Part shown: positions 10,288 through 48,650 of the stretch, piece by piece
Layout: every line of letters begins with the position of its first letter
Numbering within the stretch: position 1 is the first letter of the stretch
Position numbers and translations under genes: made by a program
Notes under the pieces: model-generated
The model's database searches: none
What the model saw: only the letters and a program-made list of their open reading frames with translations
What the model was told of the DNA's origin: nothing
DNA from: Candidatus Woesearchaeota archaeon
GTDB lineage: Archaea > Nanobdellota > Nanobdellia > Woesearchaeales > JACPBV01
Direction of reading: 5' to 3'
NCBI GenBank assembly: GCA_016180135.1
Contig: JACPBV010000005.1
Coordinates: forward strand, 802 to 64,801
DNA length: 64,000 bases

Positions 10288-13200
10288 ATGGCAAAGAATT
10301 CAATCAAAACAGGGGCAGGAAATAAGCGCACAACAGCAATCCCCCAGATTTGGGGGGATGGTAATCTCCAGAGATTAAGCTTTCTAAAAGGAGAAAGATT
10401 AAGCTTTCTGAAGGCAGAGGGATTAAGCCTTCTGAAGGCGCAAAAATTGGCCGCTATTTTCCTCCTTGCGTTGATCATCACATTCCCCATCTCCTCAACC
10501 ATCGCCTACGCAGAGCTTATCAATCCGGCAATAACAGGCTCAAAGAATATCCCGGGTTTCGTAGAAGCAAACGAAACAATCACCCTTCAGGCCAGAGCCC
10601 GGATTGCAGGAGACGATGATATCACTCCATCCCAGGTTCCCCTTTTTGAGCCATCCGGCCCTAACGTATTGTTCATTCAGGGCTGCGCCGAGGAGCCAAA
10701 CAAGGTTTTCAGGTGCACCTCATTCCTCTCCCCATCTGAAGTTTCCCAAAGAACTCTCTCTGAAAAAGTTTTTTCAATTCCGCTGTATCTCCTCCGCAAC
10801 GACGGCACCCAGGAGGATTCTGAAAATGTGCCGGGAGAAGTGGATGAGCTTCCGCCGGTATTCTCCGGAATCAGCATCTCTCCCCTTCAGGCAGGCTTCG
10901 ATGATCTCACGATAAGCTTTGATGTGACCGACTTCGGCAACAGCATCTCCCAAAACTGCGTTGGGCTGAAATCGCTGGTCGTCTCTTCGGGCTCATTTGT
11001 AAAAGAAATAGGCATTCAGAACCCCAGCTGTTCGTTAGCCTCAGGCGTTTCGATTGACTCGGAGGAGATCATTGACGATAAAGAATTTGACGGCAACATC
11101 ACAGTCACCGTAAAAGCAGCGGACAGGTTCGGGCAGGAGTCTTCCGAAAAGAATTTTAATGTCACTCTAGACAGGATGGAGCCGGAGATTAAGGGGGAGC
11201 AAAGCTTCCAGCTTCTTGACGGGGGCTTACACGAAGTTTTTTATTCAGCCGGTTCTCAGATTGTGGCTTCTGCAAGAGTAAATGTCACAGACAGCTTTCT
11301 TAATATTAGCTCGATAAGGGCAGATTTCTCTTCCCTAAATCCGGGGAATGGAATTAAATCTGCGGCTTGCAGCTTTGATGGTGAGAATGCAAGCTGCAGT
11401 TGGGCTGGAATCCTCGTTGACGTTTCCGCTACAGGAGATTTTCCAATAATTATCAATGCGTCGGATACTCTTGGGAATAATGCAACATTTGAAATTATCT
11501 ACCATATTGGACTGGATACAACTAGGCCTGAAGTCGTTTCCTTTTCGGCAGGATACCAAAAAAGTGATAAGGCGACCTCCCCAATAAATTTCTTTGGTCA
11601 ACGAGAAAATAACATAACCATAACCCTCAAGGAGTCCGGCTCCGGCTTCAGCAAAAAGAATATTGCGCTTGACTTGCGAAATATTAACAGCAACCTTGGA
11701 AGATATGACCCCGACTGGTGCAAAAAGACAAGCCCGGAGTTATGGGAATGTACATGGAACAATACTCAAATCCTCTCAAGTAATGAAAGAGTTTCCGATG
11801 GGCAAAAAGAAATTTTAATTCTTCCCGCCGGTTCAGACGATGTTGGCAATGCCCTGATCGGCGACCTTAGCCAAAATATTACTCTGGACTTATCTAAACC
11901 AGTCCTGACGGGAATTAGATACACGCCAAGCGCACCAAAAGCGCCTGAGCCTTTGATCCTAACATTCACCGCATCAGACTCATCACCTGAGCTTTTCGTT
12001 TATGCCAACACTTCACAGATTAGCTCAAGGGAAATTATCGCCGGGGAATGTGATACAAGCAGTAAGTGCAGGATTGAAATAACCGATTTGTTCACCGCCC
12101 ACATCAATGCAACAGTTTCATTGTTTGCCAGGGATATTGCGGGCAACATTGCAGAAGTCAAATATCCTGTAACCCTTTTTGAGCCGGATGCTGAAACCCA
12201 GCCAAACTTTTTCAGGATTGCGAGTGTCGAGCCAGTTCCTCTTTTCGTCGACAGGAAGGTTGCAAGCCAAATCCCATTGAAGCTCTACATTTATACAAGG
12301 CTTGCTAAGGTTGGAGAGCCAACAATTATCCAAAACTCGGTTGACTGCACTGAGTCTGCGAATTATATTAACGGGGCTGCTTACGTTCCCGGAGCTGGCT
12401 CGGGGCAATCTGCTCTTCCTGAGCTGAACAGGGGTTATTACCTGATGAATGAAGGTACCTTAGAGCCCATTATTGCATTGGAGTCATCGCAGGAAATCGC
12501 AAAACTGGAAAAGGATTTTGTTGAATACCGCTGCAAGTTTAACCTTCAGGTGAGGGACAAGACAAAGGTGTACGCAAAGCCTGAGGTTGAAGAGATCAAG
12601 GTGAGATTTACATTACGGGGGAATTCCCTTGGAGACATTCAGGAAAACCTCCAGAAAAAGATGGAGGGAGTCAACAAAGACATCCAGGAAACAGAGAAAG
12701 ATATACAGGATTTGGAAAAGTGGGTGAATATCTTTGGCATCTACTGCAAAATCTCAAGCATGATGGGTGCTTTGAATTCTGCGATACAGGCGATTAAGGC
12801 AGCACTGCAGCCAGTCTTATCAAGCATTTTCATTGCCTGCGCTACCTGTTGTGCAAAATGTGTTGACTTTGGGGCTGCATGCGCATGCGCAACTGCCACA
12901 ATGGCAACCTGGAAAGGCCTTTGCACATCAAGCTCCCTTCTCCACAAGCTCGTTGACGGATTCTTTTGGCCGGTAGGATTGCCGTTCAGGACATTCACAT
13001 CCCCCTGGACTATTGCCGGCTGGTTCCTCAAAGTAGGCTGCATGATCCTGTATTACTGCGCATTGTCCGACTGGGACCAGATGGTCTCATTGGGGGGTGA
13101 GGTAATAAGGGGAGCGCTGCCAAAGAGTGGGTTGGGGAAAATAGAAGAAAGATATAAAGAGTATAAGGATGATACTACAGTGGAACTTGTCAATGGAGAT

Positions 13201-14202
13201 TATGTCCAGTATAACTCTCAAAAGGATAGGATGGTTGTAATGTCGGGACCAAGTTATGAATTAGAAAGACCTGTCACATACAGTCTTGAATCTACTGCAC
13301 TAATGGATGTTAAACTCGTTGGTCAACCCTATATACCAGTCTCAGATGTTTTGTCGGTAAATGATATACCCGGTGGAGTCTCCTCAAGCTCAAATGCAAA
13401 AGATAGGTTCTTAACGAGATTAGCTAATGGAAATCAGCATAAAGAAGATTCATCTCAAACCATTAACCCCTCAGGTAACCCATCCACATCAAATTCCCAA
13501 CAATCTCCGAAAGCACCAGGCCCAGTCAAAAAAGCCCTTGGGATGGGCGGCAGCAAGTCATTCCTGGGATTGAAGAAGCCATCAACTAAAGACACCTTCC
13601 CGATTCAGTCAACCGATCTTGCAAACTCGTGGAACAAAGACTCAACTTCAAGCGATATCCCTTTCCTGTCAGACAAAAATCTTGCTTTTGACCCATATAA
13701 AAGCATCCATTACGCAGAAGACTCAAGGTGTTATCCTGCAATCATCTACAACAAGAAAAAAGAAAAACAGATCAAATGCCTCTACCGCAACTGCATCCAG
13801 AACCATCTGTCTGCAGGCCAGCCGACAACCATATGCGACTTTGCGTATAAGGAGCGGGAATGCCTCTATGTCCAAAGCGCCCAATACCTGAAGAATGGTT
13901 ACAAGGGATTTTTTGACAACCTCTTCAAAGCCTTGCTGAAATATGCAGTTTTCCTCATCATCGGGCATTGGCTTGCGGAAGGAAAGTGCAAGGTGTATTT
14001 CACGCCGGGAACAGATGCGATCTGCGCAGATCCTCCCCCGAGCGCTGGGGCAACCTACTCTGTCCTCTGCGGCACCATAGGCGCTCTTTTTGCCTACATG
14101 GAGATATCCTCAATCATGCAGTCAAAATTTGGTTTTTCCGATGACAAAACCGAGCTGCAAGGGCCGGACTTTTGCTCCGGAAGCGAGGATGGATTAGGAT
14201 AA
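10288..14202 (+). CDS. giant secreted surface protein A (Ig-like repeats, Cys-rich hydrophobic C-terminal region)
   Basis: A 1304-aa ORF with signal peptide 'KLAAIFLLALIITFPISSTIAYA'. It is homologous from the signal peptide onward to the 26665 protein. The true start is uncertain because the first ~55 codons contain a 3x24-nt repeat. Confidence 0.8.
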   Translation: MAKNSIKTGAGNKRTTAIPQIWGDGNLQRLSFLKGERLSFLKAEGLSLLKAQKLAAIFLLALIITFPISSTIAYAELINPAITGSKNIPGFVEANETITLQARARIAGDDDITPSQVPLFEPSGPNVLFIQGCAEEPNKVFRCTSFLSPSEVSQRTLSEKVFSIPLYLLRNDGTQEDSENVPGEVDELPPVFSGISISPLQAGFDDLTISFDVTDFGNSISQNCVGLKSLVVSSGSFVKEIGIQNPSCSLASGVSIDSEEIIDDKEFDGNITVTVKAADRFGQESSEKNFNVTLDRMEPEIKGEQSFQLLDGGLHEVFYSAGSQIVASARVNVTDSFLNISSIRADFSSLNPGNGIKSAACSFDGENASCSWAGILVDVSATGDFPIIINASDTLGNNATFEIIYHIGLDTTRPEVVSFSAGYQKSDKATSPINFFGQRENNITITLKESGSGFSKKNIALDLRNINSNLGRYDPDWCKKTSPELWECTWNNTQILSSNERVSDGQKEILILPAGSDDVGNALIGDLSQNITLDLSKPVLTGIRYTPSAPKAPEPLILTFTASDSSPELFVYANTSQISSREIIAGECDTSSKCRIEITDLFTAHINATVSLFARDIAGNIAEVKYPVTLFEPDAETQPNFFRIASVEPVPLFVDRKVASQIPLKLYIYTRLAKVGEPTIIQNSVDCTESANYINGAAYVPGAGSGQSALPELNRGYYLMNEGTLEPIIALESSQEIAKLEKDFVEYRCKFNLQVRDKTKVYAKPEVEEIKVRFTLRGNSLGDIQENLQKKMEGVNKDIQETEKDIQDLEKWVNIFGIYCKISSMMGALNSAIQAIKAALQPVLSSIFIACATCCAKCVDFGAACACATATMATWKGLCTSSSLLHKLVDGFFWPVGLPFRTFTSPWTIAGWFLKVGCMILYYCALSDWDQMVSLGGEVIRGALPKSGLGKIEERYKEYKDDTTVELVNGDYVQYNSQKDRMVVMSGPSYELERPVTYSLESTALMDVKLVGQPYIPVSDVLSVNDIPGGVSSSSNAKDRFLTRLANGNQHKEDSSQTINPSGNPSTSNSQQSPKAPGPVKKALGMGGSKSFLGLKKPSTKDTFPIQSTDLANSWNKDSTSSDIPFLSDKNLAFDPYKSIHYAEDSRCYPAIIYNKKKEKQIKCLYRNCIQNHLSAGQPTTICDFAYKERECLYVQSAQYLKNGYKGFFDNLFKALLKYAVFLIIGHWLAEGKCKVYFTPGTDAICADPPPSAGATYSVLCGTIGALFAYMEISSIMQSKFGFSDDKTELQGPDFCSGSEDGLG
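10373..10444 (+). repeat. tandem repeat, 3 x 24 nt, in the annotated 5' end of giant gene A
   Basis: 'gattaagctttctaaaaggagaaa', 'gattaagctttctgaaggcagagg' and 'gattaagccttctgaaggcgcaaa' encode RLSFLKGE/RLSFLKAE/GLSLLKAQ. Confidence 0.8.
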
Positions 14203-14302
14203 AAAATAAAATTCCACCCCCAGCAAAGCTGCGGGGTATGAACCAATTTTGAGTAATCAAAAATCGGCAGTACATTCGTTTCAATTGAGATTTGGTAAAG
14301 GG

Positions 14303-15652
14303 ATGCAAAGAAAGGTCAAGATGATTAAAGGAATAAAACCAAAAAGGTTGTCTCCATCTTTAGTGCTCTTGCTCATCATAGCCACAGCTTTTGCAAGGCA
14401 GGACCTTTCGGGGTTTAATCCGGCTGTCGGAGGCTGGTATCAGGTTTCTCCCCAAGAGATTGATTTCTGCAAAAGGTATGGCGGCTCAGAAGATGCTGGG
14501 ATAAATCAGGATTCCCGATCATCAATCCCCATTGCATTATCCCAGATTACGCTCACACTTCAGGCCAAAAGAACCTCAACCTTGGCTAACGGGCAAAGAA
14601 ACGACCTCTATGAGGTAAGCTACTACATTGAGCCGGTGAGCGGTGAAGTGGACTTTGAGGTTCAGCTTCTTGGAGAGTTTACCCCCCCTTTAGATATACC
14701 TAATGGAAGAGGGAGGGCAAAAAGCACAGAGCCGGGGATGGGATTTTATGCTAACTACCATACGGAAGTTTACTCCTCAGCAAAAATTAAATTTGGCAAT
14801 GACTTCATTGAGGTGCCCGTTATCTCTTCAGGAAGGTCTTCTGTTGAACAGGCTCTTGCAGACCAAAAGCTTGCCGCTTCTGTCAGCTCTCAGGAAGGCA
14901 CCTCTCCAAAAGGAATTTCGGTGTCAGGCTTCGACCAATGCATCGAGGATTTCTCATGTGAGTATTATTTCCTGTTCTTGCCGGTAGGGGCGGAATGGCG
15001 TAATCAGGATGTTTTTAATGCACTCGCATACCAGCGGATGCTGTTCTTTAAAGACATATCAAAGTTTAAAAGCAGGAAAGCAGGGGCTGTTTTTGCGCCA
15101 ATTTCGTTCGCATCTGAAAACTGTAACCTTATTAACATCGAGGAAAATTTCCAAAAGCGTGAAATGCACGACAGGATACAGGCGTGCGCTGATAAATATG
15201 CAAGAAGCCTTGGGATAGGATATGAGCGTGCTGTGGGCTTATCTGGCTCTGAAAGTGTTGAAGGAGCCTTTAATGGATATGCCTATTTCACATCGAAAGC
15301 CGCATTTGCCAGGAGGGGCGGTCCCCCCCATGGAGACATAACTTCAGTTGTAGCCCATGAATGGGGGCACACGTATCAGCTATGTGATGAATATAAATAT
15401 CAAACATACTCCAGCCAAGAAAACGAGATAACATGCAAGAACGATTGGCCGACCGAATGCCCGAAGGCTGATTCCTGCTCTGGCCCCCATTGTTATAAAG
15501 AGCTGTGCCGTGGCAATTTCCCGGTCTTTAGGGATTATTCAGGCCCCCCTCTCCCATCAGTCTGCAGGATGGAGGCCAAATATTCAGTAATGGGGGTCGG
15601 AGATGGCGTATGCGGCTTTGATAAAACAGGAGGCTATGAAGCGTTAGGGTGA
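14303..15652 (+). CDS. secreted zinc metalloprotease-like protein (HEXXH)
   Basis: Contains 'VVAHEWGHTYQLCDEY', an N-terminal signal anchor 'LSPSLVLLLIIATAFA' and a Cys-rich C-terminus. The first ATG in frame is at 14303. Confidence 0.7.
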   Translation: MQRKVKMIKGIKPKRLSPSLVLLLIIATAFARQDLSGFNPAVGGWYQVSPQEIDFCKRYGGSEDAGINQDSRSSIPIALSQITLTLQAKRTSTLANGQRNDLYEVSYYIEPVSGEVDFEVQLLGEFTPPLDIPNGRGRAKSTEPGMGFYANYHTEVYSSAKIKFGNDFIEVPVISSGRSSVEQALADQKLAASVSSQEGTSPKGISVSGFDQCIEDFSCEYYFLFLPVGAEWRNQDVFNALAYQRMLFFKDISKFKSRKAGAVFAPISFASENCNLINIEENFQKREMHDRIQACADKYARSLGIGYERAVGLSGSESVEGAFNGYAYFTSKAAFARRGGPPHGDITSVVAHEWGHTYQLCDEYKYQTYSSQENEITCKNDWPTECPKADSCSGPHCYKELCRGNFPVFRDYSGPPLPSVCRMEAKYSVMGVGDGVCGFDKTGGYEALG

Positions 15653-16659
15653 AAATAAAGATGAAATTAAAAATGTTTTTTGGTGTTGGCGCCTTTTTAT
15701 TATTTTTCATTTCTCAAGCGTCAGCTTTGACCATCTGCGAATATGGCCTTGAGATTTCCAAAACGAACGATGTGAATCTGCTTAATATCAACACTTTTCC
15801 CGGAATTGAAGAACCGGATCTTTCGCCCTCCTCAAAATACCAGTTTATCATAAAAAACTCGGAAGATGAGGCAGTTTACCTGAGAGGGATACCCGTATTC
15901 TTCGGTATCCTTGACGCTGATGAGGAGGTGGATGCTATCCCTGTATCAGTGAGGGTCCCTTGCAGCGAAGATGCTGAAAGGCTTGATATAACCTTGGGCG
16001 GAAAGCCAATCTTTTCTTCCGATATTGCCAATCTCCTCTGCAATAAAGACACCGTATGCAATGGGTTTGAAACCTCATTACGATGCTCAGACTGCCCGCA
16101 GTCCTCTTCAGATGGGTGGTGCGACAGGATCAAAGATAACAGATGTGACCCTGATTGCCGGGGAGTTGATATTGACTGCGGCATTGTGGATTCATTTGTT
16201 GCATTAGAAACTTCAGGACCTCTTGCGCTTCAGGGCGAAACCGCTGACAAGCAGAAAAGGCCTGAAGAGCCTTCTGTCGACGGAAGCCTAGGAGAAAAGT
16301 TACCCATCCAATCGCTTCAAAAAACGAGGAGTGAGAAAAACCAGCAGGAATTATTGTTGGATGAGGCACTCATAGGTGAATTATGCAATAAAAATGGCAT
16401 TTGCGATGAAAACGAGGACAGCCAAACTTGCCCTATTGAATGCCCCCCGTCCGATGGGCAGATTGAGCAGCATGATAAAACGGGTGCAGAGGAAATAATA
16501 ACAGGGGTTGCGCCCCAGGCTGAATCTGGAGATAATGCTTCATTTTTCAGGAATCGGAAACCATTGCTGGCGGGACTCATCTTATTGGTAACTGCAATCC
16601 TTGTTATTGGGATTGCCATTCGTTTCATCCGCAGGAGGAGAAGCTATGAGTTTCCATAA
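15649..16659 (+). CDS. Cys-rich secreted protein with a C-terminal membrane anchor
   Basis: It has a signal peptide and two 'C.K.(G/T).C(D/N)...(S/T)..C..(D/E)C' modules reminiscent of Myxococcus-type cysteine-rich repeats. The C-terminal TM is 'LLAGLILLVTAILVIGIAI' followed by RRRR. Confidence 0.6.
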   Translation: MKIKMKLKMFFGVGAFLLFFISQASALTICEYGLEISKTNDVNLLNINTFPGIEEPDLSPSSKYQFIIKNSEDEAVYLRGIPVFFGILDADEEVDAIPVSVRVPCSEDAERLDITLGGKPIFSSDIANLLCNKDTVCNGFETSLRCSDCPQSSSDGWCDRIKDNRCDPDCRGVDIDCGIVDSFVALETSGPLALQGETADKQKRPEEPSVDGSLGEKLPIQSLQKTRSEKNQQELLLDEALIGELCNKNGICDENEDSQTCPIECPPSDGQIEQHDKTGAEEIITGVAPQAESGDNASFFRNRKPLLAGLILLVTAILVIGIAIRFIRRRRSYEFP

Positions 16660-17464
16660 CTTTGGATTGTGGCTTAAGGGCCTTTCTATAGTGAAGAGCT
16701 TTTCAGCTATAGGCAGGGAAAGCCTTCTCTTGATGCTTTTTGAGATAATAAAAGTCTTTGCGGCAGTTGCCATTTTCCTTCTCCTCAGCATGAGCCTCCG
16801 TTCCGGTTTCCATAGCATCGGAATTTCAGATGATCTTATGGAAGATGCTCTCAATAATTTAGGAGTGCCATCCTATCAGGAAAAATTCATTCAGGAAAAA
16901 GTTCCCGAGCCATCCACATTTAAAAACAGGTTTTATTTCCTTATTTTTAATACCGGATTAAAGATAGTTGGCTCGCTTCTCACCCTTATGGCGATAAGCT
17001 CGGCGCTCAACGCATGGGGATGGTGCATTATCCAGAAAAAGAGATGCTCATGGAAATTTATTCTCAGGTATATGGGGCTGATGGCACTTTGGGTATTTTC
17101 CTGGCTGGCTGGTTTTCTTGCGATAACGCTCAACCTGAAGCCAAATCTCATCCCCTGGGCCGCTCCGATAATGCTTTTCCTCTTTATTTTCTTTTCTTTT
17201 ATCCTATTCCCTACATTTGCTATACGGGGAAATATTTTCGCATCCCTGAAACAGGCCTTTGCTCTTGGAATTAGAAAATTCCATATTTTTTTTGGAAATA
17301 TTCTTTGGGCATATATTGTTTATCAGATAGGATTAATCCTGGTAATCTCCCAATCATCCTTCCAGCGCATAATCCTGTATCTTGTTCCATTAATGATTAT
17401 CCTGGGATTTGTTTGGGTAAAATATTTCAGCCTCGAGGTTTTAAAAAATGCGGCAAACAGGTAA
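16646..17464 (+). CDS. polytopic membrane protein, paralog of 38394 and 58865
   Basis: Multiple hydrophobic helices. It shares the block 'IRGNIFASLKQAFALGIRKFH' with 'LRAIREGLAEGIRLHH' in the 38394 protein. It overlaps both neighbours. Confidence 0.6.
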   Translation: MSFHNFGLWLKGLSIVKSFSAIGRESLLLMLFEIIKVFAAVAIFLLLSMSLRSGFHSIGISDDLMEDALNNLGVPSYQEKFIQEKVPEPSTFKNRFYFLIFNTGLKIVGSLLTLMAISSALNAWGWCIIQKKRCSWKFILRYMGLMALWVFSWLAGFLAITLNLKPNLIPWAAPIMLFLFIFFSFILFPTFAIRGNIFASLKQAFALGIRKFHIFFGNILWAYIVYQIGLILVISQSSFQRIILYLVPLMIILGFVWVKYFSLEVLKNAANR

Positions 17465-30988: not shown

Positions 30989-31037
30989 CATGCCCCGCCG
31001 CACAAAAGGCCACAGGCATACCCCAGGCATGCAGAAC

Positions 31038-36794: not shown

Positions 36795-36905
36795 TATACC
36801 CGATAACCAAGAAAAATCAATTAATAGATTAATGGAAAAAAAATGCGCCATAAAACACTGAAGTCGGGACAAAAAACCATGGCAACCCACAACACTCCCT
36901 TCCCC

Positions 36906-37469: not shown

Positions 37470-37470
37470 G

Positions 37471-38393: not shown

Positions 38394-39212
38394 ATGAAAC
38401 CGATCAAAACAATAAAAAGAAAAAGCTCCTGGGGTGAAGCTCTCGGAGAATATTTCCGGGATCACGGAAAAGCCGCTTTCAAAGCAGCAAAAGCCTCGAT
38501 GAACACCCGCACCCTGATGGCGGCAGGATACGCCGCAATATTATTCTCAGCCACGCTCCTTGCATTCTTTTTTGCGAAGCTTGCCCTGGTTCCAAAACTG
38601 GAAGCGCTTGACTCGATCAGCCTTGACCGCATCCAGGAAAAGGCAGAGGGTGAATTGGCGGAGATTGCCGGAATAGCGAAAGGATTCATCGCAGCCCTTA
38701 TAGCAGTCGTTATAGCAGCATCAGCGCTCTGGGCTCTGCTCTTTGGCCTAATCGAGGGAAGCCTCATCAGAGGATTTACCGGCTCGGATGTTCCCCTGAA
38801 AAGATATGCCCTCCTTGGGCTTGTTTGGGCCCCCGCCTGGCTGGCCATATTCTTCCTCCTCATTTTTGGGGGCAGGTCGGAAACACTCCTCACAGGATTG
38901 ATCATGCTGGCGCTGGCCTTCATCCACTTCAGCACGACAGTCTTTTGCCGCTTTTCGGCAACGAACAGGTTAAGGGCAATAAGGGAAGGCCTTGCCGAAG
39001 GAATAAGGCTTCACCATTATCTCCTGCCCTACATTTCCCTATACTTTATATACCGCCTCGGCAAATATCTCTTTGATTGGGCATTAATCCTGAGCAAAGC
39101 TCAGCCAGGGATTGTCCTGCTTGGGACCGGAATGGTTTTGATGCTGCTGTTCATCGGATTTGCGCAGGCATTCCAGATCAACACTCTCCTGCAGGCCAAA
39201 CAAGCCAGATAG
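38394..39212 (+). CDS. polytopic membrane protein, paralog of 16646 and 58865
   Basis: It has five or more hydrophobic helices and the shared 'LRAIREGLAEGIRLHHYL' block. It lies directly upstream of the prepilin-like gene of module C. Confidence 0.6.
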   Translation: MKPIKTIKRKSSWGEALGEYFRDHGKAAFKAAKASMNTRTLMAAGYAAILFSATLLAFFFAKLALVPKLEALDSISLDRIQEKAEGELAEIAGIAKGFIAALIAVVIAASALWALLFGLIEGSLIRGFTGSDVPLKRYALLGLVWAPAWLAIFFLLIFGGRSETLLTGLIMLALAFIHFSTTVFCRFSATNRLRAIREGLAEGIRLHHYLLPYISLYFIYRLGKYLFDWALILSKAQPGIVLLGTGMVLMLLFIGFAQAFQINTLLQAKQAR

Positions 39213-39397: not shown

Positions 39398-41500
39398 ATG
39401 AAAAAAAGAGGGCAGATAACGGTTTTTATAGTGATAGGCTTATTGATACTCTTCACCTTCTACCTCCTCTCACGTGAAAAAAGAGAATCTATCGAAGATA
39501 CAGAGATTATTCAGCCGGAACTGATCCCTGTCCAGCAGTTCGTGGAAAGCTGCTCGAAAGAGCTCGCAAAGGAAGCCCTGTTCCTCATCGGCGCAAACGG
39601 CGGCTATATCTATTTCCCCGAATGGATCGACCGGGTTCCGGGAAGATCGCTCCAGAACTCTCCCAACAGGGATATCAGGAATCCGCTGTGGTGGTTCGAC
39701 GGAACGCTTGCAATTCCGCCGCTGGCCCAGATCGAGCAGGACATGGCAAGGTTCATCCAGGACAGGATGCCACGCTGCCTGAACAACTTCTCGGCATTCA
39801 ACAGGACTTATGCAATCGAGGAGCTCGGAGACTTAAAAACTGCAGTCATCCTCGGAGATGACCAGCGGCTGAAAGATGATGTCACTGTCAGAACCCAATA
39901 TCCTATAAAAGTCAAAGACAGGTTCAACACCACGCTCGCAGAGCTCCAGAAATTTGTTATTACACTTCCTATACGGTTCCAGCGCACCTACAATCTTGCA
40001 AAGCTTATCATGGAGAGGGAAAAGAAAGACTTTTTCATCGAGGAAAAGGCCATTGACCTCATCAACATGGACCCAAAGACCCCGACAACAGGGTTTGAGT
40101 TCACCTGCAAGAAAAAAATCTGGCAGACAGCTCAGGTAGAAGACCGGATAAAGAAGCTCCTTGAAGTGAACCTAAACCATCTCAAGGTCAAAGGCACAAA
40201 GTTCGACCCTGATGCTATCCTGCCCTACCTCGGCGATACTGTCCCTGATTTCCGTGGGAAGCTCACCGCCCAGCAGATCAAAGAAGCCTCTCAGGCCGGC
40301 AGCCCTTCAGCCACACGGGACAATGAAAAAGATTTCTCCTACCTGAACAAAGCGCTTTCTGACACGTATAAGGATTCATATTATTACGCCCATTATGTCT
40401 GGGACCTCGCAAGGGATCCCGAGCCATACCGGAACTTCAGGACAAATTTCCAGTTCGACAGGTCATGGCCGTTTTTGCTGAAAGCCAGCCCGTCGAAAGG
40501 CCCCATCATGGAGACTAATGCGATGAAGGGCTCCAAATTCCTCTCGGCATTCTGCCTCCACACATGGCATTTCACCTACAGCATGGAATTCCCGGTAAAA
40601 GTGACGCTCGTCGATGAAAAGGCAGAAAAGAACGATGGATACACCTTCAGTTTTGCATTCCAGGCAAAACTCACCAAGAACTACCCCGACCCTACTGCGC
40701 AGGATTTCACAACCATGCTCAGGCGTGATATCTACACTTCAGATGAATACTGCGCTGACATCACTGCAGAAAACCCGGTGATGGTGCTTATCGCCAGAGA
40801 CCTCATCACCGATGAGGATATCAGCAAAGTGAATATGACCTTCACCTGCGGCAGATACGCCTGCGATATCGGCCAGACAAAGCCGGACTTCACCAATAGA
40901 GGAGCGCCTTCATTGAAGAAGCAGCTTCCTCAGTGCACCAACGGAATCCTCAGAGGCTCAAAGGCAAACTATGAAGATGCCCAGCGATTCATCAACACCG
41001 AGATAGAGCGCATCTACACTCTGCCGATGCAGCCGGTAAAATATTTCAATATTTCAGTCAGAAAGCACATGCTCAAAGATATAGGGGACAGCGGCTCCGG
41101 GATTGACTTTGCCGGAGAGCGCCTGCTCGGGAACGGCGAGGAAGCGTTAGTCATGGTGAGATATCCCCCGAAAAAGTTTGAGTCCTTTGCAATATACGAT
41201 AGGTTTCCCGTCAGCCTTGATGACCCGATACAATCCTCATTGAAGCTCCTCGCCAAAGAAGACATAGAATATGAAGTAGAGGTTTACCTTTCCAGCAACA
41301 AGACCATCACCGGCGGCTATATTGCCAACTGGACAGCGTCAAAAGACCAGATAAAGCTCGGTGAAAACATCACCTTCCACATCGCAGAGCAGCCCCATAA
41401 GGTCGGCGAGGAGTTCAAAGAAAGCGACGACATCGCAATTTTGTTTTTCGGGGCATTGCCTGCAATATCAGAGAAGCTCCCGCCGCCTGAGATAAAGTAG
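39398..41500 (+). CDS. large protein with a class III (prepilin-like) signal peptide, module C
   Basis: The N-terminus is 'MKKRGQITVFIVIGLLILFTF'. Conserved blocks are 'IPVQQFVESC', 'GGYIYFP' and 'FTYSMEFPVKVTLVD'. Confidence 0.8.
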   Translation: MKKRGQITVFIVIGLLILFTFYLLSREKRESIEDTEIIQPELIPVQQFVESCSKELAKEALFLIGANGGYIYFPEWIDRVPGRSLQNSPNRDIRNPLWWFDGTLAIPPLAQIEQDMARFIQDRMPRCLNNFSAFNRTYAIEELGDLKTAVILGDDQRLKDDVTVRTQYPIKVKDRFNTTLAELQKFVITLPIRFQRTYNLAKLIMEREKKDFFIEEKAIDLINMDPKTPTTGFEFTCKKKIWQTAQVEDRIKKLLEVNLNHLKVKGTKFDPDAILPYLGDTVPDFRGKLTAQQIKEASQAGSPSATRDNEKDFSYLNKALSDTYKDSYYYAHYVWDLARDPEPYRNFRTNFQFDRSWPFLLKASPSKGPIMETNAMKGSKFLSAFCLHTWHFTYSMEFPVKVTLVDEKAEKNDGYTFSFAFQAKLTKNYPDPTAQDFTTMLRRDIYTSDEYCADITAENPVMVLIARDLITDEDISKVNMTFTCGRYACDIGQTKPDFTNRGAPSLKKQLPQCTNGILRGSKANYEDAQRFINTEIERIYTLPMQPVKYFNISVRKHMLKDIGDSGSGIDFAGERLLGNGEEALVMVRYPPKKFESFAIYDRFPVSLDDPIQSSLKLLAKEDIEYEVEVYLSSNKTITGGYIANWTASKDQIKLGENITFHIAEQPHKVGEEFKESDDIAILFFGALPAISEKLPPPEIK

Positions 41501-41989: not shown

Positions 41990-42102
41990 GGCAAATAGGC
42001 AAATAGGCAAATAAGCAGGACAGCTGGATAAAATAAAAATGCAGGAGTGAAGATAAAAAAGGTGCAGGAGTGAAGATAAGAAAGATGCAGGAATGATGAT
42101 AA
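41990..42102 (+). repeat. two short tandem arrays in the leader of giant gene C (3 x 8 nt 'ggcaaata', 3 x 23 nt 'tgcaggagtgaagataa...')
   Basis: The 8-nt units are at 41990, 41998 and 42006. The 23-nt units are at 42040, 42063 and 42086, and the last overlaps the ATG at 42093. Confidence 0.7.
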
Positions 42103-45100
42103 TAACCAAAATGGCCAAAATCACCGCAGTCCAGAGCATTGCCATATTCCTCATAGAGATTATGCTCTTCATGCCTTTTGCTTTTGTTGACGCCCTTACC
42201 ATCTCAGAAGTCAAGGTCGAGAACATCAGGACAACCGGCGCTTCGATAACCTGGAAGACTGACGAGCTTGCTGATTCGACGGTAGAATTCGGGAAGACAA
42301 ATTCATTGGGCCAGCAGGAGCGCTCCGACAGGCTGGTAAAAGCCCACATCGCCAACCTCAATGGGCTTGATCCTAACGCTTCTTACTTTTTCAAAGTCTC
42401 CTCAGCAGGTGTTTCAGTCTCAACTGAGGTCCAGCCCCCGACTGCTGCTGACGACAATGCAGGAAAGCTTTACCAGTTCAACACCCTCCGCCAGCAGCCG
42501 ATGTTCATCAATGCGACGGTGCCTGCGAAGCTGAATTCGGGCCATACCCTCTCAATCCCCGGAAAGACGCTTGTGTTTGCGCTGGTGCAGTTATTCATCA
42601 ACAGCACGCTCCGTGAGGAAAGGGTAGCTGACAAGGATGGAAACTTTGTGTTTCCAGGTATTACGCTCGGAGAAAACACCCATAAGATTCGGATAACATC
42701 AAGGCGTGAAAGCGAATTTGCGGAAAAGCAATTCTCAATAGTTGTCGATACCAAAGCTCCTGAGCTTGAGCTGAAGGATTTCCCCGAATCGACAAGCAGC
42801 TCAGAATTTTTCATCGCAGGAACTGTATCCGAAAATGTAACCTTAAAATTTCAGGTAAGCCTCGCAAGGCCCGACAAAAACCCGCCATCAAAGATCAGGA
42901 ACCTCAATGCCTCAATCACAGGCCAGAATGCAGTGAAGATTTCCTGGGCGCAGTCAAAGCTTGCGAACGGGACTTTGACTCCTGACTTTGCAAGGTATAT
43001 TGTCCTGAGGGATGAGATCCCTATCTTCTCGACCGACGATATCTCAGGAAATGAAACCACAGATGCCAGGGCAAATGCCAACCGCTCCTACACCTATCAG
43101 GTGATTGCGATGGACATTTTCGGCAATATCGGCGAAGGCGAGGAAAAGGCCCTAAGCATCGGGCCTGAAGGAAGGCAGGACATCCCCAATATTGAGGCTA
43201 TTGATGTCTTTGAGAATCTCAAAAGCTTCCAGAAAAGTGTGACGGCAAAAGGAAAGTTCAACGAGAGTATCATGCTGGATGAGCAGGACCAGTTCTACAA
43301 TATCCAGGTGCTTGCCATTGACGGCGCTGACAACCAGGTTTCTGTCACCAAAGAGATTCTTCTTGACCAGACTCCCCCCACAATCCAGGTCCTGTCCCCT
43401 GTCCCTGGGCAGTCAATTTTCGAGAACTTTGCCGACGAGGTGGTCATACGGGGTGCGACTGAGCCTGGCGCAAGAGTTTATTTGTTTGTCAACAGGCATC
43501 CTTTTGCAGAATTCTCTCAGAAAGGCGATATAGCAGGAATCCCCAATGAGATAGAAAACCTTCCTGAAGCTGACCTTCAGGCGGACTGTGAATTCAAAGT
43601 ATTGGGATTGGACAGGTGCAGGAAGCATGCTGACTACCAGGCAATTGCAGACGAAGAGGGATTTTTTGAGATTGAGGATGTTGACCTGACGAGCGTCTTT
43701 GCCGGAGCTATCAGGATACGGCAGAAGAACTTTACTACATTCTTTCCTGATGAGCTTGCAACCCTTGAAGGCATAAAAGATTCCAGCCAGGCAAGAGTCT
43801 TTATCATTGCGCAGGACATCGCAGGCAAAAGAGCGCATCAGGCGTTTGGATATAAAGTTGAGACCTGCTTTTCAGGAAATTTTACCTTCTCAGCAAGGCC
43901 TTTGGTGCAATACCAGTCCCCAACATTCCTGAGCGTTGAAAGGCTCAGAGAAGGCTCTGAGCAGATCTTCTTTTATTTCAATTTCTCCTACAACGGCCAG
44001 GCGCAGAGGGCTTTCATCCAGAGCCTTGACATCCAGAAAGCATGCGGAGAGTTTTTAGGCGATCCGGAGCAGAGCGCCCGCTACAATATTTCCTGCGAAG
44101 TATTGGGTCCATGCCTTGCAAGAATGAATCCGGACAGGACAACTGCCTATGTCACATGCCAGCTCGACAGGCTTGAAGTGCTTGACAATGCCAATATCAC
44201 TGACCTTGAGAAATTCCTGAAGGGAGTGGCAAAGGAAGTTGCTTTTCCCCTGAAGCTGACATTGAATTATGAGGAAGAGTTCCCTCCAGCGCCCGTATCA
44301 AATATCCCTCCTGCAGCGATACCTCAGCCGGGAGTGGTTATTGAGCCGGCTGCAGCGGTGCCGCAGGCGCCAAACACGCTGCCAAACAGAAACACCGGCC
44401 TCCAGCAGACTTTCTGCGAAGAAGTGACCTATGTTTTAGACGCCTCTTTCATCAACCCAAAAGACGTGCTCCCTGACTGGCTGCTGTATGATTTCGTTGA
44501 CATCCTCAACAAAACCCTGACAACCCTGAATGAATGGCTTGAGAAGATCCGTGAGATCCTCGAATGGCTTGCCATCTCCTGCGTCGTTGCATTCCTGCTG
44601 AAATTTGTCATCCAGATCTACAGGAGGATAACTTGCCATTATGACAGGTTCTACAAAAAGATTTCAGGCAGCATCGGTGAAACCTCAAAATCGGGGAAGG
44701 ACGACTGCCAGAAATGCATTGAGCAGGAAAAAACTGAAAGAGAGTCTCTTGCCTCCAGCATGACTGCATCAGGAAAGAAACTTTATACCGCTGATGACAA
44801 ATATTACCAGGCTTCTGTTGAGAACCTGATTGCGGGAAAACAGGACATCCAGGACAGGTTGAGCAATAAATGCCTTAAGGCCTGTTACCCGACCTGCTCC
44901 GGCGCTTGGAAGGCAGAAGAGATGCTTTACAATGCCTACAGGTTTGCCTGTGACCGTGTTTTTGGCCACGCATCCCCTTCGGGCTGGACTAAAGACAAAA
45001 GTGATGAAGATCTGAAAAAGAAGCTCAATCTGGGAGTCGGCTGCACCCAGGACCAAAGCGTCAGGGGCAGGCCGGTAAGGGCTCAGAAATGCAGGGAATT

Positions 45101-48100
45101 AGAGCTGAAGTATTCCCTGATCGGAAAATCCTTTACTGAAGATGACACCTGCGTGGAAATTGAAGAGCCAAAGGGAACATCAGCAAGCTTTGGAGGGACA
45201 CTCTATAAGATTGGAAACCCCTATGATTCCAACAGGGGGGTCTATGAGATGACTGCTGTAACAAACCCCTCAAAGGTAGAAGGGGAGTATATTGTCAAGC
45301 AGAACGAAAAGAATTATCTTTACAAGAGGAAAGAAACCTGTGAGGAAGTCTGCGGCGCAAAGGGAAGGGAGCCTCCGGCAAAAATAGTAGGAAAGCCAAA
45401 AGATCCCCCACCGGCACCATCAGGAAAAGCCGGAGAGATTGACGCAGGGAAAAAATCCCAGAGCTTCTGCATGCTTGCCAGCGACTGCTATAATCTTCAG
45501 AAAGAGGGGCAGGATAAGAAAAGCGCCGGTTCAATAATTAAGACTATTGATGATCCAAAGAAAGGGGGGCCTGTCCCGGTTACTGTGGACGAAGCAAGGC
45601 TTGAAGGCTACACGAGCGACTGCTGGGAGGGCTATGCGCCATTCTACATTTCTGGAAAGCCTGAAGAACGAGTGGAATGCTGCTGCATTAATCCTGCAGT
45701 AGGCCAGATGTCTGATTATTACGTTCAAAGTGATGTGGAAAGCAAGTCAGATGAAGACGCCAAAGCCTCGGATATTGGAGACATGAAATGGTCCTACCGC
45801 TACTGGAAGACAAACTGGAGGGCACCTTCAGGGGCAACTGCTTACAACCCAAACAGATACATTGCCGGAAGGGATTTTACTGCATGCTTCGGCCAGAACC
45901 ATATCATCTATGACGGCTTAAGCGGAAGAGGGAATCTCCTTATCATTGATCCCATCAAGCAGCATATTGCCGCATTCCAGTGCCTTGCTGTCTCACAGAT
46001 TTACAACAGGCTAACGCTGCTCAAGAACATCCTGACTTCATTGCAGACATGCTTATTGCAGATACGCACGACGGGAAAAGCCGATGCGGGAGTCTGCAAG
46101 GAACTGTTCTCTCAGTTCATCTGCTCGTTCCTCTGGAAAATCATAACGTGGGTCACCGACGGATGTTTGCCGTTCGGAGCCGGATTTGACCTCTCAAAGT
46201 CCGATAATGCATTTGCAGAGGCATTGGGCGTCGGGCTTAAGGGAGTCACTGATTCAATAGCAGACTCCCAGACGGAGATTGCGCAGGAATATGGGAATGC
46301 GAAGATCAACAATCTTCTGGGAGCTGGCCAGGAAGCTGTCTTCCGGAAAGTATGCCTGCTGGCATTCGGCTATGACTGGGAAATAGGATTAGATGATATC
46401 ATTGATGCTGCCTATGATGTTCCTTTTGCGACTCTGGTTCAGGCAGTTTTGCCGGCAAGGGAATACCTCAACTTTGATCCGATCGCAAGGCAGTCGGTGT
46501 ATGAATACCGGTCTTCATGGCTCATCAATCCCGGCTGCGATCTGGCCGGCTACCGAGTTGACTTATCCTGCGTCACGAGGGATGACATGCTCCAGTTCCC
46601 CGACGTCAAAGGCACTCCAGGAGGCATCAACTGCGGCAAGCAGGGAGATCCTTTCGGCAGCAACTGCGACTGTCTCAATGCGCAGGTCCCTCCGACAGCT
46701 CCTGCCGGCGGCCAGACTCCCTACTCAGGCGGCGGCCCGGCAGATTTCTTTTACGAGGACAGGTCCACCCTCAGCCAGAATCAATACATCGAAGTTGACT
46801 CATCGCAGATTGACAGAAAGATCAGGACATCCCCATTTAGGTATGACCATCTCAAATTTACCCTCTTTCCGGACCAGAACTATATCAGGAACGGGGGAAA
46901 TGTGAAAAACTGCTTCCCCGAAGGGCATGAGAACGGCGTGTTTTATTTCCCGATCGTCGACTATACTGCAAGGGACATCACCGGCTGTGTGGTAACGACA
47001 GACGGAAGGTTCACCTGCGATTCATCCACCGCATTTTTCTTTGACCAGGGCAATGCAAACATCCAGCAGATAACCCTGAAAAATCAGGCATTTACCATAG
47101 CCCAGAACCTCCAGCCCCAGACAGCAACATACTATGCCGGAAGCAGCGAGAACATCGAAGGCGAAGTCACCTATTTCTCCGACGGAAAATCCCCGCAATG
47201 CCTGGTCGTGAGGCTGCTGGACCCCGCAGGAAATATCCTTGAAACCAACCAGCTCAACGTCCAGACCTTAAGCCCCGACCTTTCAGCATCCAATGCCCCC
47301 TACGGAACAGCAAGCACGCCGGGAGTAAAAACAGCGCCGTTCAGGGTGAACAGGCAGATAACTTCAGAGGATATCGGCGGCCAGGGCGGCTTTTTCAAGA
47401 TTTTCTATATCCAGAACGCATTAGAACAATCTGCTGCCGGGTTTACTGTAGTTGATAAAACAAACGCCCAGGAGGGGACAGGCTCTTTGGCTTTTACTGA
47501 CAGTAACGCAAATAATGTTGTTCCGGATCCTGGAGACCAGTATGTTATTGGAACAGGAGGAGCTGTGACGCTGGCTGCCAGCGACTGCGAAAGCACCGGA
47601 TGCACAATAAGGCTTCCGGTAGGAGTCACCCTTAAAGCAAGCGGGCTGCAAAAAACTCCGAAAGGCGATTATGCTTACACATTCGATTCAAAGAGAGTTG
47701 CTCCCACAACAGTAGCCGGCGGCGCAACAAAATTCTTCCTGCACCTTGACTTAAGGCACCCGAACAAGGCAAACAACGACTGCCAGACCGTAGCTGGAAA
47801 ATCCTACGACAATACTAACATCATCGTTTCCGGTGGATTGTCGCAATCGATAAACATTCCTATCGAAGTCCTGCCGGGTGCAAGAACCGAAAACAATAAG
47901 AAATGCGAACCCAGATTTGAGGCAGACATTATCGAGTTTGAAGCTCTCGGCGTAAAAAAGCAGTTAAGCGCAGCTCCCGGTAATGATATGACAAACATCT
48001 GCGCCTGCAGCAGTGCAGTTCAGCCCAACTGCCCCCAAAAGTCAGCTGCCGGAGAATATTACAAATATTGTTATGGAACGTGCAGGGAATATCCGAAGTG

Positions 48101-48650
48101 CAATACGGGAATTGATCTGACCAATAGTCAATGCGTCTGTAATCCGCAAACTGCTCCAGGGAATTATGATTGCGGAACTTTGCCTTCTGGTGATGCAATA
48201 ACAGCTGGACTACCAGTAGCAGAAAGGAAGTTTTGCAATGAAAATGGTGGGGCGAGAAGTTGCGGAGCGACACAAACTAATATTCCACAACAACCAACTC
48301 CCCAACCCCCTACCAAGGGGTCTTTAAGCATAAGTTTAGGTGGTAAATCAATACCTGATAATGCAAGGACAGAAATAGAAAAGCAAAGGTTGGTTAACGG
48401 CATTATTGTAGTTCCACAAAATTTCCCCAACCTAAAAGGAATTTCAGTTGATACTCTATTTGGCAACATTAATACCGCAATACTCTCAAATTTAGGATCA
48501 CGATGGGAGCTAACCCCCATTACATTGTCCGAAAAAGCAAATAATGCAATTCTTCCTATTGATGAAACAATAGTCATAAAGATAGATTCAGGATCAAACA
48601 TAATTGAAGAAAGGAGGGATATTAAGATTATCCAACCAACCACAACTTAA
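42093..48650 (+). CDS. giant secreted surface protein C (FN3-like and Ig-like domains, Cys-rich regions)
   Basis: A 2185-aa ORF with signal peptide 'IAIFLIEIMLFMPFAFVDA'. FN3-like segments are 'ISEVKVENIRTTGASITWKTD...YFFKVSS' and 'IRNLNASITGQNAVKISW...YTYQVIAMD'. The TM-like 'WLAISCVVAFLLKFVIQIY' sits mid-protein. Confidence 0.85.
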   Translation: MMIITKMAKITAVQSIAIFLIEIMLFMPFAFVDALTISEVKVENIRTTGASITWKTDELADSTVEFGKTNSLGQQERSDRLVKAHIANLNGLDPNASYFFKVSSAGVSVSTEVQPPTAADDNAGKLYQFNTLRQQPMFINATVPAKLNSGHTLSIPGKTLVFALVQLFINSTLREERVADKDGNFVFPGITLGENTHKIRITSRRESEFAEKQFSIVVDTKAPELELKDFPESTSSSEFFIAGTVSENVTLKFQVSLARPDKNPPSKIRNLNASITGQNAVKISWAQSKLANGTLTPDFARYIVLRDEIPIFSTDDISGNETTDARANANRSYTYQVIAMDIFGNIGEGEEKALSIGPEGRQDIPNIEAIDVFENLKSFQKSVTAKGKFNESIMLDEQDQFYNIQVLAIDGADNQVSVTKEILLDQTPPTIQVLSPVPGQSIFENFADEVVIRGATEPGARVYLFVNRHPFAEFSQKGDIAGIPNEIENLPEADLQADCEFKVLGLDRCRKHADYQAIADEEGFFEIEDVDLTSVFAGAIRIRQKNFTTFFPDELATLEGIKDSSQARVFIIAQDIAGKRAHQAFGYKVETCFSGNFTFSARPLVQYQSPTFLSVERLREGSEQIFFYFNFSYNGQAQRAFIQSLDIQKACGEFLGDPEQSARYNISCEVLGPCLARMNPDRTTAYVTCQLDRLEVLDNANITDLEKFLKGVAKEVAFPLKLTLNYEEEFPPAPVSNIPPAAIPQPGVVIEPAAAVPQAPNTLPNRNTGLQQTFCEEVTYVLDASFINPKDVLPDWLLYDFVDILNKTLTTLNEWLEKIREILEWLAISCVVAFLLKFVIQIYRRITCHYDRFYKKISGSIGETSKSGKDDCQKCIEQEKTERESLASSMTASGKKLYTADDKYYQASVENLIAGKQDIQDRLSNKCLKACYPTCSGAWKAEEMLYNAYRFACDRVFGHASPSGWTKDKSDEDLKKKLNLGVGCTQDQSVRGRPVRAQKCRELELKYSLIGKSFTEDDTCVEIEEPKGTSASFGGTLYKIGNPYDSNRGVYEMTAVTNPSKVEGEYIVKQNEKNYLYKRKETCEEVCGAKGREPPAKIVGKPKDPPPAPSGKAGEIDAGKKSQSFCMLASDCYNLQKEGQDKKSAGSIIKTIDDPKKGGPVPVTVDEARLEGYTSDCWEGYAPFYISGKPEERVECCCINPAVGQMSDYYVQSDVESKSDEDAKASDIGDMKWSYRYWKTNWRAPSGATAYNPNRYIAGRDFTACFGQNHIIYDGLSGRGNLLIIDPIKQHIAAFQCLAVSQIYNRLTLLKNILTSLQTCLLQIRTTGKADAGVCKELFSQFICSFLWKIITWVTDGCLPFGAGFDLSKSDNAFAEALGVGLKGVTDSIADSQTEIAQEYGNAKINNLLGAGQEAVFRKVCLLAFGYDWEIGLDDIIDAAYDVPFATLVQAVLPAREYLNFDPIARQSVYEYRSSWLINPGCDLAGYRVDLSCVTRDDMLQFPDVKGTPGGINCGKQGDPFGSNCDCLNAQVPPTAPAGGQTPYSGGGPADFFYEDRSTLSQNQYIEVDSSQIDRKIRTSPFRYDHLKFTLFPDQNYIRNGGNVKNCFPEGHENGVFYFPIVDYTARDITGCVVTTDGRFTCDSSTAFFFDQGNANIQQITLKNQAFTIAQNLQPQTATYYAGSSENIEGEVTYFSDGKSPQCLVVRLLDPAGNILETNQLNVQTLSPDLSASNAPYGTASTPGVKTAPFRVNRQITSEDIGGQGGFFKIFYIQNALEQSAAGFTVVDKTNAQEGTGSLAFTDSNANNVVPDPGDQYVIGTGGAVTLAASDCESTGCTIRLPVGVTLKASGLQKTPKGDYAYTFDSKRVAPTTVAGGATKFFLHLDLRHPNKANNDCQTVAGKSYDNTNIIVSGGLSQSINIPIEVLPGARTENNKKCEPRFEADIIEFEALGVKKQLSAAPGNDMTNICACSSAVQPNCPQKSAAGEYYKYCYGTCREYPKCNTGIDLTNSQCVCNPQTAPGNYDCGTLPSGDAITAGLPVAERKFCNENGGARSCGATQTNIPQQPTPQPPTKGSLSISLGGKSIPDNARTEIEKQRLVNGIIVVPQNFPNLKGISVDTLFGNINTAILSNLGSRWELTPITLSEKANNAILPIDETIVIKIDSGSNIIEERRDIKIIQPTTT

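Follow-up and report, generated by a model that had tools for sequence, protein, structure and literature searches.

A conserved envelope super-locus of Woesearchaeota with large prepilin-like surface proteins

Gene content and conservation of the locus

We analyzed a 64,000-nucleotide (nt) stretch of contig JACPBV010000005.1 (positions 802 to 64,801, forward strand; hereafter the window), from the metagenome-assembled genome (MAG) GCA_016180135.1 of a Candidatus Woesearchaeota archaeon, with respect to a set of surface-protein genes lying between window positions 10288 and 48650. An initial annotation, made without database searches, had described this region as three paralogous modules plus a partial one, each combining prepilin-like and giant immunoglobulin (Ig)-rich proteins, mostly with a polytopic membrane protein, and had supposed a small episymbiotic archaeon as their source. 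All open reading frames (ORFs) that it listed are present where it had placed them, and the organism, as a member of the Woesearchaeota, does belong to the DPANN archaea. The modular layout has to be replaced: the stretch 10288-48650 is a single conserved super-locus and not a series of separate modules (Table 1). Its genes fall into families that we designate X (prepilin-like surface proteins), Y (Ig-like repeat proteins), M (polytopic membrane proteins), U, Z, T, W, R and G, and follow one another in the order Y_A-U-(T)-M_A-X_A, then W, then R-X1-Y_B-Z-M-X2-G. In NCBI, the proteins are HYU14_00790 to HYU14_00895 and are named "hypothetical proteins" except for G, an "fn3 domain-containing protein".

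Contigs of relatives carrying the locus were fetched, numbered (L001, L004, L015 and so on) and annotated with hidden Markov models (HMMs) of the families. The canonical order in these relatives is Y_A-U-M_A-X_A, W on the opposite strand, and R-X1-Y_B-Z-M-X2-G, which the window matches exactly; the conserved set amounts to 11-12 envelope genes, about a dozen. The full string YUMXWXYZMXG is present in L015 and L025, with a truncated form on about 25 further Woesearchaeota/Nanoarchaeota contigs. With each GTDB species represented by one genome, a pattern scan based on an alignment of 15 closer X sequences returned 29 loci, all of them in Woesearchaeota/Nanoarchaeota MAGs. Co-occurrence of the genes as a unit, which had been suggested from this one stretch of DNA, hence holds well past the source genome, on about 30 Woesearchaeota/Nanoarchaeota contigs. 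Counted over loci, X is followed by Y 25 times, Y by Z 14, Z by M 13 and M by X 21 times; X precedes G in 11 cases, Y precedes U in six and R precedes X in eight, and U-family ORFs precede M in nine loci. The 21 M-X pairs were obtained from 30 scorable cases, the other nine having no family gene within 400 nt. At the gene junctions, starts and stops overlap by 4-17 nt, which suggests co-translation; the start of Y_B overlaps the stop of X1 by 4 nt, so that Y_B is predicted to be translationally coupled to X1.

Because the window order equals the canonical order, the two modules formerly distinguished at 24539-29949 and 38394-48650 are one operon, separated in the window by candidate-defence cassettes with two YhcG/PDC-S02 genes and a Schlafen-like gene. 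What is repeated is most likely a cassette of four genes, Y-(U/Z)-M-X, in two copies, with X1, G, W and R (a small ORF) as additional genes. This view of the repeat is founded on a hhalign alignment of the N-terminal domain of U with the conserved domain at the C-terminus of Z (E 3.5e-4, probability 37%, 118 columns); the two domains are probably homologous. The partial set was not borne out as further X and M genes, as the product of 57310-58494 reached a hhalign probability of 0.4% against the X profile and that of 58865-59665 a probability of 1.2% against the M profile, neither having an HMM match.

The flanks of the relatives contain housekeeping genes, including those for methionyl-tRNA synthetase (MetRS), triosephosphate isomerase (TIM), a ZIP transporter and ribosomal protein L1. 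An origin from a virus or mobile element was considered and rejected in view of these flanks and of one IMG/VR pattern scan, which returned no relative. The window contains no Rfam or tRNA match.

Ten of the relative records (L008, L009, L012, L014, L016/L005, L017, L022, L028, L032 and L033) are third-party annotation (TPA) MAG entries titled "uncultured Methanosarcinales archaeon". As their gene order equals that of the Woesearchaeota-labelled contigs, this title is probably a placeholder or an error.

Table 1 Features of the super-locus and its window-specific insertions (window coordinates; aa, amino acids; a slash within a sequence marks the predicted cut site).
Feature	Coordinates	Strand	Description
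Y_A	10288..14202	+	1304-aa ORF; Sec-exported, Ig-like repeats, coiled coil, hydrophobic Cys-rich segment, Cys-rich C-terminal domain
U	14249..15652	+	Secreted; N-terminal domain resembles the Z C-terminal domain; always lies just upstream of M_A
T	15649..16659	+	Signal peptide and C-terminal transmembrane anchor (transmembrane segments aa 3-21, 306-324); variable member of the first cassette (A)
M_A	16646..17464	+	Polytopic, 5-6 transmembrane segments; foreign M HMM E 5e-8 (16601/16646 start)
X_A	17448..20453	+	1001 aa; N-terminus MRQTGKKG/QVSLFIIVG; X HMM E 2.5e-143; best match is the positional X_A orthologue
W	20563..21861	-	~55-aa cytoplasmic N-domain, one transmembrane segment, Cys-rich ectodomain (18 Cys); conserved between the two cassettes
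R	24301..24465	+	54-aa ORF directly upstream of X1; ribbon-helix-helix-like by eye
X1	24539..26668	+	709 aa; predicted class III signal, alpha/beta domain, CnaB/transthyretin-like beta-sandwich domains
Y_B	26665..29949	+	1094 aa; Sec-exported, Ig-like repeats, coiled coil, Cys-rich C-terminal domain
Insertion 1	29942..32539	+	YhcG/DUF1016 nuclease fused to a Z-start remnant, plus Schlafen-AlbA2/HATPase_c_4/winged helix-turn-helix gene; PADLOC PDC-S02 E 5e-132
Z	32536..35799	+	1087 aa, N-terminally anchored or secreted, conserved C-terminal domain; slot between Y_B and M
Insertion 2	35796..38392	+	Second YhcG/DUF1016 gene, duplicated Z 3' fragment (36843-37469), PIN-like ORF, further fragment
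M (M_C)	38394..39212	+	5 transmembrane segments; foreign M HMM E 2e-17
X2	39398..41500	+	700 aa; N-terminus MKKRG/QITVFIVIG; X HMM E 1.5e-88; positional class X2
G	42093..48650	+	2185 aa; Sec signal, N-terminal fn3, further fn3/Ig-like domains, long C-terminal region

The X family and its N-terminal signal

The paralogy of the three X proteins, first noticed from shared sequence blocks, is supported by all-against-all BLASTP of the window proteome (E 2e-46 for X_A and X1, 9e-28 for X1 and X2, 1.6e-14 for X_A and X2) and by an HMM built exclusively from foreign homologues, which matches all three at E <= 1.5e-88. Most of the motifs quoted in the initial annotation were found in the proteins. 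Searched exhaustively with a profile, a set of 1.84 billion cluster representatives contains 9,403 X-family clusters (50% identity) at E <= 1e-3, of which 1,895 remain at E <= 1e-30. In 46 of 46 cases, the best match of an X protein falls in its own positional class (X_A, X1 or X2), with identities of 36-41% inside a class and 24-29% across classes. From this we conclude that the duplication is an old one and that no copy is redundant. X2 shares 43% identity with the product of L004 18692-20647.

X proteins carry a near-invariant N-terminal signature, [KR][KR]G/Q-x-T-x-F-I-I-I-G, the slash marking the predicted cut site. The corresponding class III (type IV prepilin-like) motif was seen in 101 of 165 long X-family sequences, and all three window proteins satisfy a FlaFind-style pattern, in line with the prepilin-like N-terminus originally attributed to the ~700-1000-aa proteins. 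Among the 101 motif-bearing sequences, the leader mostly comprises 4-8 aa with Lys or Arg at -2 and -1, followed by Gln at +1 (100/101), Thr at +3 (95/101), Phe at +5 (92/101) and Gly at +9 (96/101), while the Gly at the cut site is required by the search pattern and does not constitute an independent count. Hydropathy places hydrophobic segments after the predicted cut sites at residues 10-28, 14-32 and 7-25. We take this to be a class III (prepilin-type) N-terminus, which is conserved much more strictly than simple membrane anchoring would demand.

An AlphaFold2 (AF2) model of X1, with a predicted local distance difference test (pLDDT) score of 84, has a helix at residues 9-43 that is followed, after a flexible linker, by an alpha/beta domain (residues ~56-445) and by beta-sandwich domains (~450-670). 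The alpha/beta domain, or head, holds most of the family-invariant residues (C68, W119, W283, Y387, P392, F410, N421), many of which are aromatic or Cys, and the model suggests that it is a domain of new fold. Foldseek against the PDB matched exclusively the beta-sandwich part, with E values from 1.6e-7 (TIE protein of Bacillus anthracis) to 1e-3, the targets including SpaC, SpaA, BcpA, CnaB2 (8bdw; TM-score 0.57 over 96 columns) and carboxypeptidase regulatory domains; matches in BFVD were similar generic beta-sandwich arrays. A sub-threshold CarboxypepD_reg match in Pfam was obtained for X_A. A thioester domain in the X head, an idea raised by the TIE-protein match, was discarded, the globular part having no invariant Gln.

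By these Foldseek matches, the C-terminal beta-sandwich domains of X resemble those of Gram-positive sortase-pilus and MSCRAMM adhesins such as SpaA, BcpA, SpaC, TIE and CnaB proteins. The likeness concerns only a generic stalk fold (global TM-score about 0.1), with the X head unmatched. In contrast to sortase substrates, X proteins have no C-terminal membrane-spanning tail, their sole hydrophobic segment being N-terminal (the LPXTG string was not searched for), and the window has no sortase match in Pfam.

Partner proteins, insertions and neighbouring genes

Y_A and Y_B are likewise paralogues, as had been claimed for the 1304- and 1094-aa proteins (BLASTP E 4e-63, 27% identity over 845 aa), and Y_A orthologues lie upstream of U-M-X_A in L013, L015, L025 and L035. 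Y proteins start with a signal of Sec type (AYA/S), and the following ~730 residues or so are rich in beta-strands with periodic repeats. Their repeat pattern, D-x3-P / DxxGN with a period of about 110-120 aa, is confined to Y; the "DxTxP" Ig-domain starts that the initial annotation had seen repeated in all giant proteins dwindle to one or two per protein when the motif is applied strictly. An Ig-like nature of the repeats is weakly suggested by sub-threshold Pfam matches to Big_13/Big_3_3 and by a search of the Y profile against the PDB, which returned the Ig-like region of the HPI protein of Deinococcus radiodurans (E 3e-4) and the R28 Rib domain (E 0.01). Of 28 invariant columns in the family alignment, 15 are Cys, and many of the invariant Cys belong to the C-terminal domain. 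The low-confidence model of Y_B contains a long predicted helix at aa 742-797. Y homologues were drawn from the fetched loci; a word-indexed homologue search returned only the query itself for full-length Y and two fragments for a profile of the C-terminal part.

Judged by its signal peptide, at about aa 54-75 of the ORF, Y_A probably starts near 10426, downstream of the annotated start. The alignment with Y_B and the signal peptide begin at about residue 47-50 of the Y_A ORF, and the residues before the signal peptide (window 10288-10430) contain a tandem LSFLKGE/LSFLKAE/LSLLKAQ repeat. A likeness greater than expected was observed between the Sec signals of Y and G (26665-26760 and 42093-42210), which align over their first ~35 residues (hhalign E 0.005) with the common pattern A-x-F-[LM]-I-x-[LI]-x-L-x-x-P-F; it may reflect a common export or recognition feature.

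G has an N-terminal fn3 match at E 2.8e-4, an internal hydrophobic helix at aa 822-840 and 58 Cys over the whole protein, and shares 39% identity with the N-terminus of G in L004. Paralogy of G with Y is not demonstrable: BLAST yields E 1e-3 over 149 aa, and hhalign of the Cys-rich C-terminal regions E 1.6e-3 at a probability of 16%.

For the membrane proteins M_A and M_C, pairwise BLAST is weak (E 8e-5), yet the HMM built from four foreign M proteins matches both, and the paralogy originally claimed for them stands. None of 25 M-family members has a Pfam match, and a PDB profile search finds only a designed transmembrane protein. The M alignment contains no conserved acidic or catalytic residue, the sole near-invariant residue being Trp145. 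Two candidate functions were accordingly dismissed, that of a prepilin peptidase, for which two conserved catalytic Asp, one of them in a GxGD motif, would be expected (no conserved Asp, no Peptidase_A24 match), and that of a type IV filament platform protein such as PilC, TadC or ArlJ (no T2SSF match).

The remaining members are conserved to different degrees. T, whose start overlaps the stop of U by 4 nt, has a homologue in L004 only (E 2e-7). The C-terminus of Z shares 44% identity with the product of L004 15143-17947, and W 36% identity with that of L004 7324-8550. Matches to W between X_A and R/X1 were obtained in L007-L012 and L027 (E 1e-81 to 1e-158), with weaker ones (1e-11 to 1e-22) at the same position in about ten more loci; a Dicty_CTDC repeat in W stays below threshold. 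Homologues of R, also 54 aa long, lie directly upstream of X1 in eight loci, and gene calls for R exist in L001, L003 and L004 as well. Since its Pfam match is not significant, we only infer the ribbon-helix-helix fold, and R is possibly a regulator of the operon. With X, Y, Z, M, W, U, T or G as query, neither sequence nor profile searches of Pfam, NCBIfam and the PDB yielded anything above threshold beyond generic domains, in agreement with the initial annotation, which had recognised no characterised family for the genes. The conserved locus proteins contain no known catalytic or assembly domain.

The locus in the window has been invaded between Y_B and M by two candidate-defence cassettes that are not part of the surface system. 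Their YhcG/DUF1016 PDDEXK genes, 47% identical mutually, match PADLOC PDC-S02 at E of about 1e-132 and 1e-138. Parts of Z are duplicated around the insertions, namely its 5' end (29965-30009 and 31049-31213) and its 3' end (36905-37459, 92-96% nt identity). GC content is 0.39-0.42 in the insertion stretch compared with 0.45-0.51 in its neighbours, with the intact Z copy also inside the low-GC stretch. The loci of the relatives are without these cassettes.

A further difference concerns the unusually long X2-G spacer, which measures 592 nt in the window versus a 4-nt overlap in L004 and is filled by two palindromic elements, each about 115-120 nt in length. They belong to a family of intergenic palindromes of ~120-150 nt found at 6864-7016, 41680-41797 (reverse orientation) and 58612-58733, with more divergent copies at 41817-41931 and 4311-4486. 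The arms are 16-nt terminal inverted sequences, GAAAATyyCAACAAC / GTTGTTGrrATTTTC, and the common core is CCGAGCAGGGCAAAATT ... TTTTGACCGTCGAGCCC. Folding of the segment 41680-41965, which is without a match in Rfam, gives z of about -6 for either strand. Judged by these features, the family looks like a miniature inverted-repeat transposable element (MITE)-like element or a structured RNA.

Envelope genes are abundant across the whole contig region. On the minus strand, 51827-57232 encodes secreted proteins outside the locus: a CARDB-domain protein (665 aa), a protein with three transmembrane segments (105 aa) and one that carries DUF5122 beta-propeller repeats (1021 aa). Flanking genes resemble toxin-antitoxin systems, with a PIN gene at 9105-9590 beside a UPF0175/ribbon-helix-helix-like partner (8801-9103) and a second PIN gene at 49546-49920. 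An AAA_14/DUF4143 ATPase at 69-1067 matches the PADLOC candidate PDC-S01 (E 6e-88).

Interpretation as a probable envelope or cell-contact structure

We propose that the locus is a vertically inherited envelope super-locus of Woesearchaeales-type DPANN archaea that makes a multi-subunit, membrane-anchored adhesion or cell-contact structure, a reading to which we assign a probability of roughly 55%; a role in adhesion or host contact, which the initial annotation had inferred, is plausible. An ancient duplication of the four-gene cassette (Y, U/Z-domain protein, M and X) would have given rise to the locus. The three X paralogues would be made with a class III signal of EppA type, and a PibD/EppA-type peptidase encoded elsewhere would cut after the conserved Gly, leaving Gln at +1. 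The ~20-residue hydrophobic N-terminal helix would then anchor X beside M, either in the membrane or within a short helix bundle of pilin type, with the CnaB/transthyretin-like beta-sandwich domains serving as a stalk and the aromatic-rich alpha/beta domain as a binding head. Y and G, both Sec-exported and Ig/fn3-rich, would dock together with Z/U on this X-M base and extend outward.

Several observations weigh against this proposal. Pfam searches and a FlaFind-style scan of the window identified no A24 peptidase, assembly ATPase, platform protein, secretin or small major pilin, so that the initial annotation was right in reporting no assembly ATPase, prepilin peptidase or secretin among these ORFs. 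Pilus components were likewise absent from the annotated flanks of three relatives and from the 25 most frequent of 38 matched Pfam families across 57 flanking ORFs at 17 other loci. The X N-termini match neither PF04021, even at E <= 10, nor any other Pfam pilin model, and have Phe at +5 instead of the Glu of the pattern Q-x-S-x-E-x-x-x-L, with Gly at +9. Foldseek against PDB and BFVD gave no match of the X head that would point to a ligand or function, and the AF2 model of Y_B, based on a 4-row alignment, is unusable at a pLDDT of 38. Finally, strong conservation and a neighbourhood of MetRS, TIM and ribosomal L1 genes would suit a core envelope or S-layer-like structure, too, in place of a host-specific adhesin. 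That the locus itself lacks machinery does not settle the matter: in Methanococcus maripaludis, pilin genes are scattered and lie far from their ATPase gene (PMC3875500).

The X signal can be compared with that of the EppA substrates of M. maripaludis, for which the rule is a 5-13-aa leader that has Gly as its last residue and is followed by Gln at +1 (PMC3875500). Like the EppA-processed, DUF361-type pilins of this organism (EpdA-C, MMP1685 and others), X proteins have a short basic leader up to Gly, Gln at +1, Ser or Thr at +3 and a hydrophobic helix of ~20 aa, and their genes lie apart from an ATPase gene within the window and examined flanks. Unlike these pilins, they have Phe rather than Glu at +5 and no PF04021 match, the mature proteins, at 650-1000 aa, include beta-sandwich domains and an alpha/beta head of new type, and genes for EppA, ATPase and platform protein are not linked to them in the same regions. 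The KKGQxTxF motif could instead be an uncleaved signal for membrane insertion or topology, or an M-binding motif, in which case X would be an ordinary type II membrane protein with convergent pilin likeness. The missing Pfam pilin match, the Phe at +5 and the lack of a nearby peptidase in the window and examined flanks agree with such an anchor, and M, encoded directly upstream of X_A and X2, would suit as a helix-helix partner. On the other hand, near-invariance of G-1, Q+1 and T+3 behind a 4-8-aa basic leader in about 100 divergent sequences is unusual for simple anchors, and the signature has the class III architecture described for EppA substrates (PMC3875500). We rank an uncleaved anchor as the least probable of the explanations considered here.

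X_A, X1 and X2 might also be true minor pilins of a type IV machine encoded elsewhere, forming a pilus-tip or priming complex with Y and G as tip adhesins, in the manner of PilY1 and its minor pilins or of modular pilins. Both the conservation of the class III signal along the EppA-type rule and the presence of three pilin-like, non-redundant paralogues are compatible with this. A study of archaeal type IV filaments reports that its System 1 occurs in DPANN and that, in several filament loci, large Ig-rich adhesin-like proteins are encoded with those bearing a class III signal (bioRxiv 10.64898/2026.04.22.720090). Like the adhesins of such loci (e.g. arCOG05616, arCOG07037), Y and G are giant Ig/fn3-rich secreted proteins encoded beside class III signal proteins; unlike there, no ATPase and platform genes adjoin them, and the likeness is one of description. 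Bacteria, too, have modular pilins in which a pilin N-terminus is joined to a bulky adhesive module, such as PilB and PilC of Streptococcus sanguinis (PMC8179133). X resembles these by concept and differs from them in that the bacterial genes reside inside a complete pilus locus, whereas no machinery is linked to X in the window and examined flanks. Against a pilus tip speak the lack of a small major pilin in the window, of an ATPase, platform protein or peptidase in the examined flanks of relatives, and the size of mature X, far above that of known archaeal pilins. Known pilus systems, moreover, contain nothing that corresponds to the polytopic partner M, which shows no similarity to T2SSF. 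We hold a pilus-tip complex to be quite unlikely.

Large non-pilin surface proteins held via a class III signal do exist, namely the substrate-binding proteins of the Sulfolobus bindosome. X proteins would share with them a large size and the use of a prepilin-type signal for retention at the cell surface. They differ from the bindosome in that the locus lacks both ABC transporter genes and Pfam domains of solute-binding proteins.

A more static role has to be weighed as well, in which the locus would build a core envelope scaffold, an S-layer-like sheet with Y and G as an outer Ig lattice and X, M, W and T as anchors, and not an adhesin. Synteny kept over many lineages in a housekeeping chromosomal context, the very large size of the X family and the membrane anchoring of several partners would suit a scaffold, and within-group identities of 36-41% suggest moderate purifying selection instead of fast diversification. 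The top PDB match of the Y profile, HPI, is itself an S-layer protein; this match, however, spans only a 44-residue Ig-domain motif. Neither a lattice-forming nor a PGF-CTERM/archaeosortase signal was found, and the locus proteins have no match to a Pfam S-layer family. For known archaeal S-layers, one or two genes suffice, as opposed to about eleven here, and we know of no S-layer with three retained paralogues bearing a prepilin-type signal. A scaffold appears unlikely, although less so than a pilus tip.

DPANN archaea depend on contact with other cells. To our knowledge, the molecules mediating this contact are not known for nearly all DPANN lineages, including the very abundant Woesearchaeota. 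It is conceivable, if decidedly improbable and below a pilus tip in our estimate, that the locus encodes a DPANN-specific host-contact machine and not a passive adhesin, a machine whose membrane base of X and M would thrust Y and G toward the host, where the coiled coil, hydrophobic segment and Cys-rich C-terminal modules of Y/G would insert into or remodel the host envelope. If true, a surface nanomachine of this kind, without characterised homologue, could underlie the cytoplasmic bridges or the feeding pores that DPANN-host pairs display.

Returning to the adhesion or cell-contact structure favoured here, the locus represents a real, widespread and uncharacterised DPANN envelope system, even though its theme, prepilin-signal proteins together with Ig-rich adhesins, is already known. 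It extends prepilin-type signals, as predicted, to very large modular proteins that are encoded apart from pilus machinery. The signature X family counts thousands of members at 50% identity that are annotated as just "hypothetical", and X and its partner families are candidates for new Pfam/arCOG families. With three X groups, Y, Z/U, M, G, W and the putative regulator R, the locus offers concrete targets for study.

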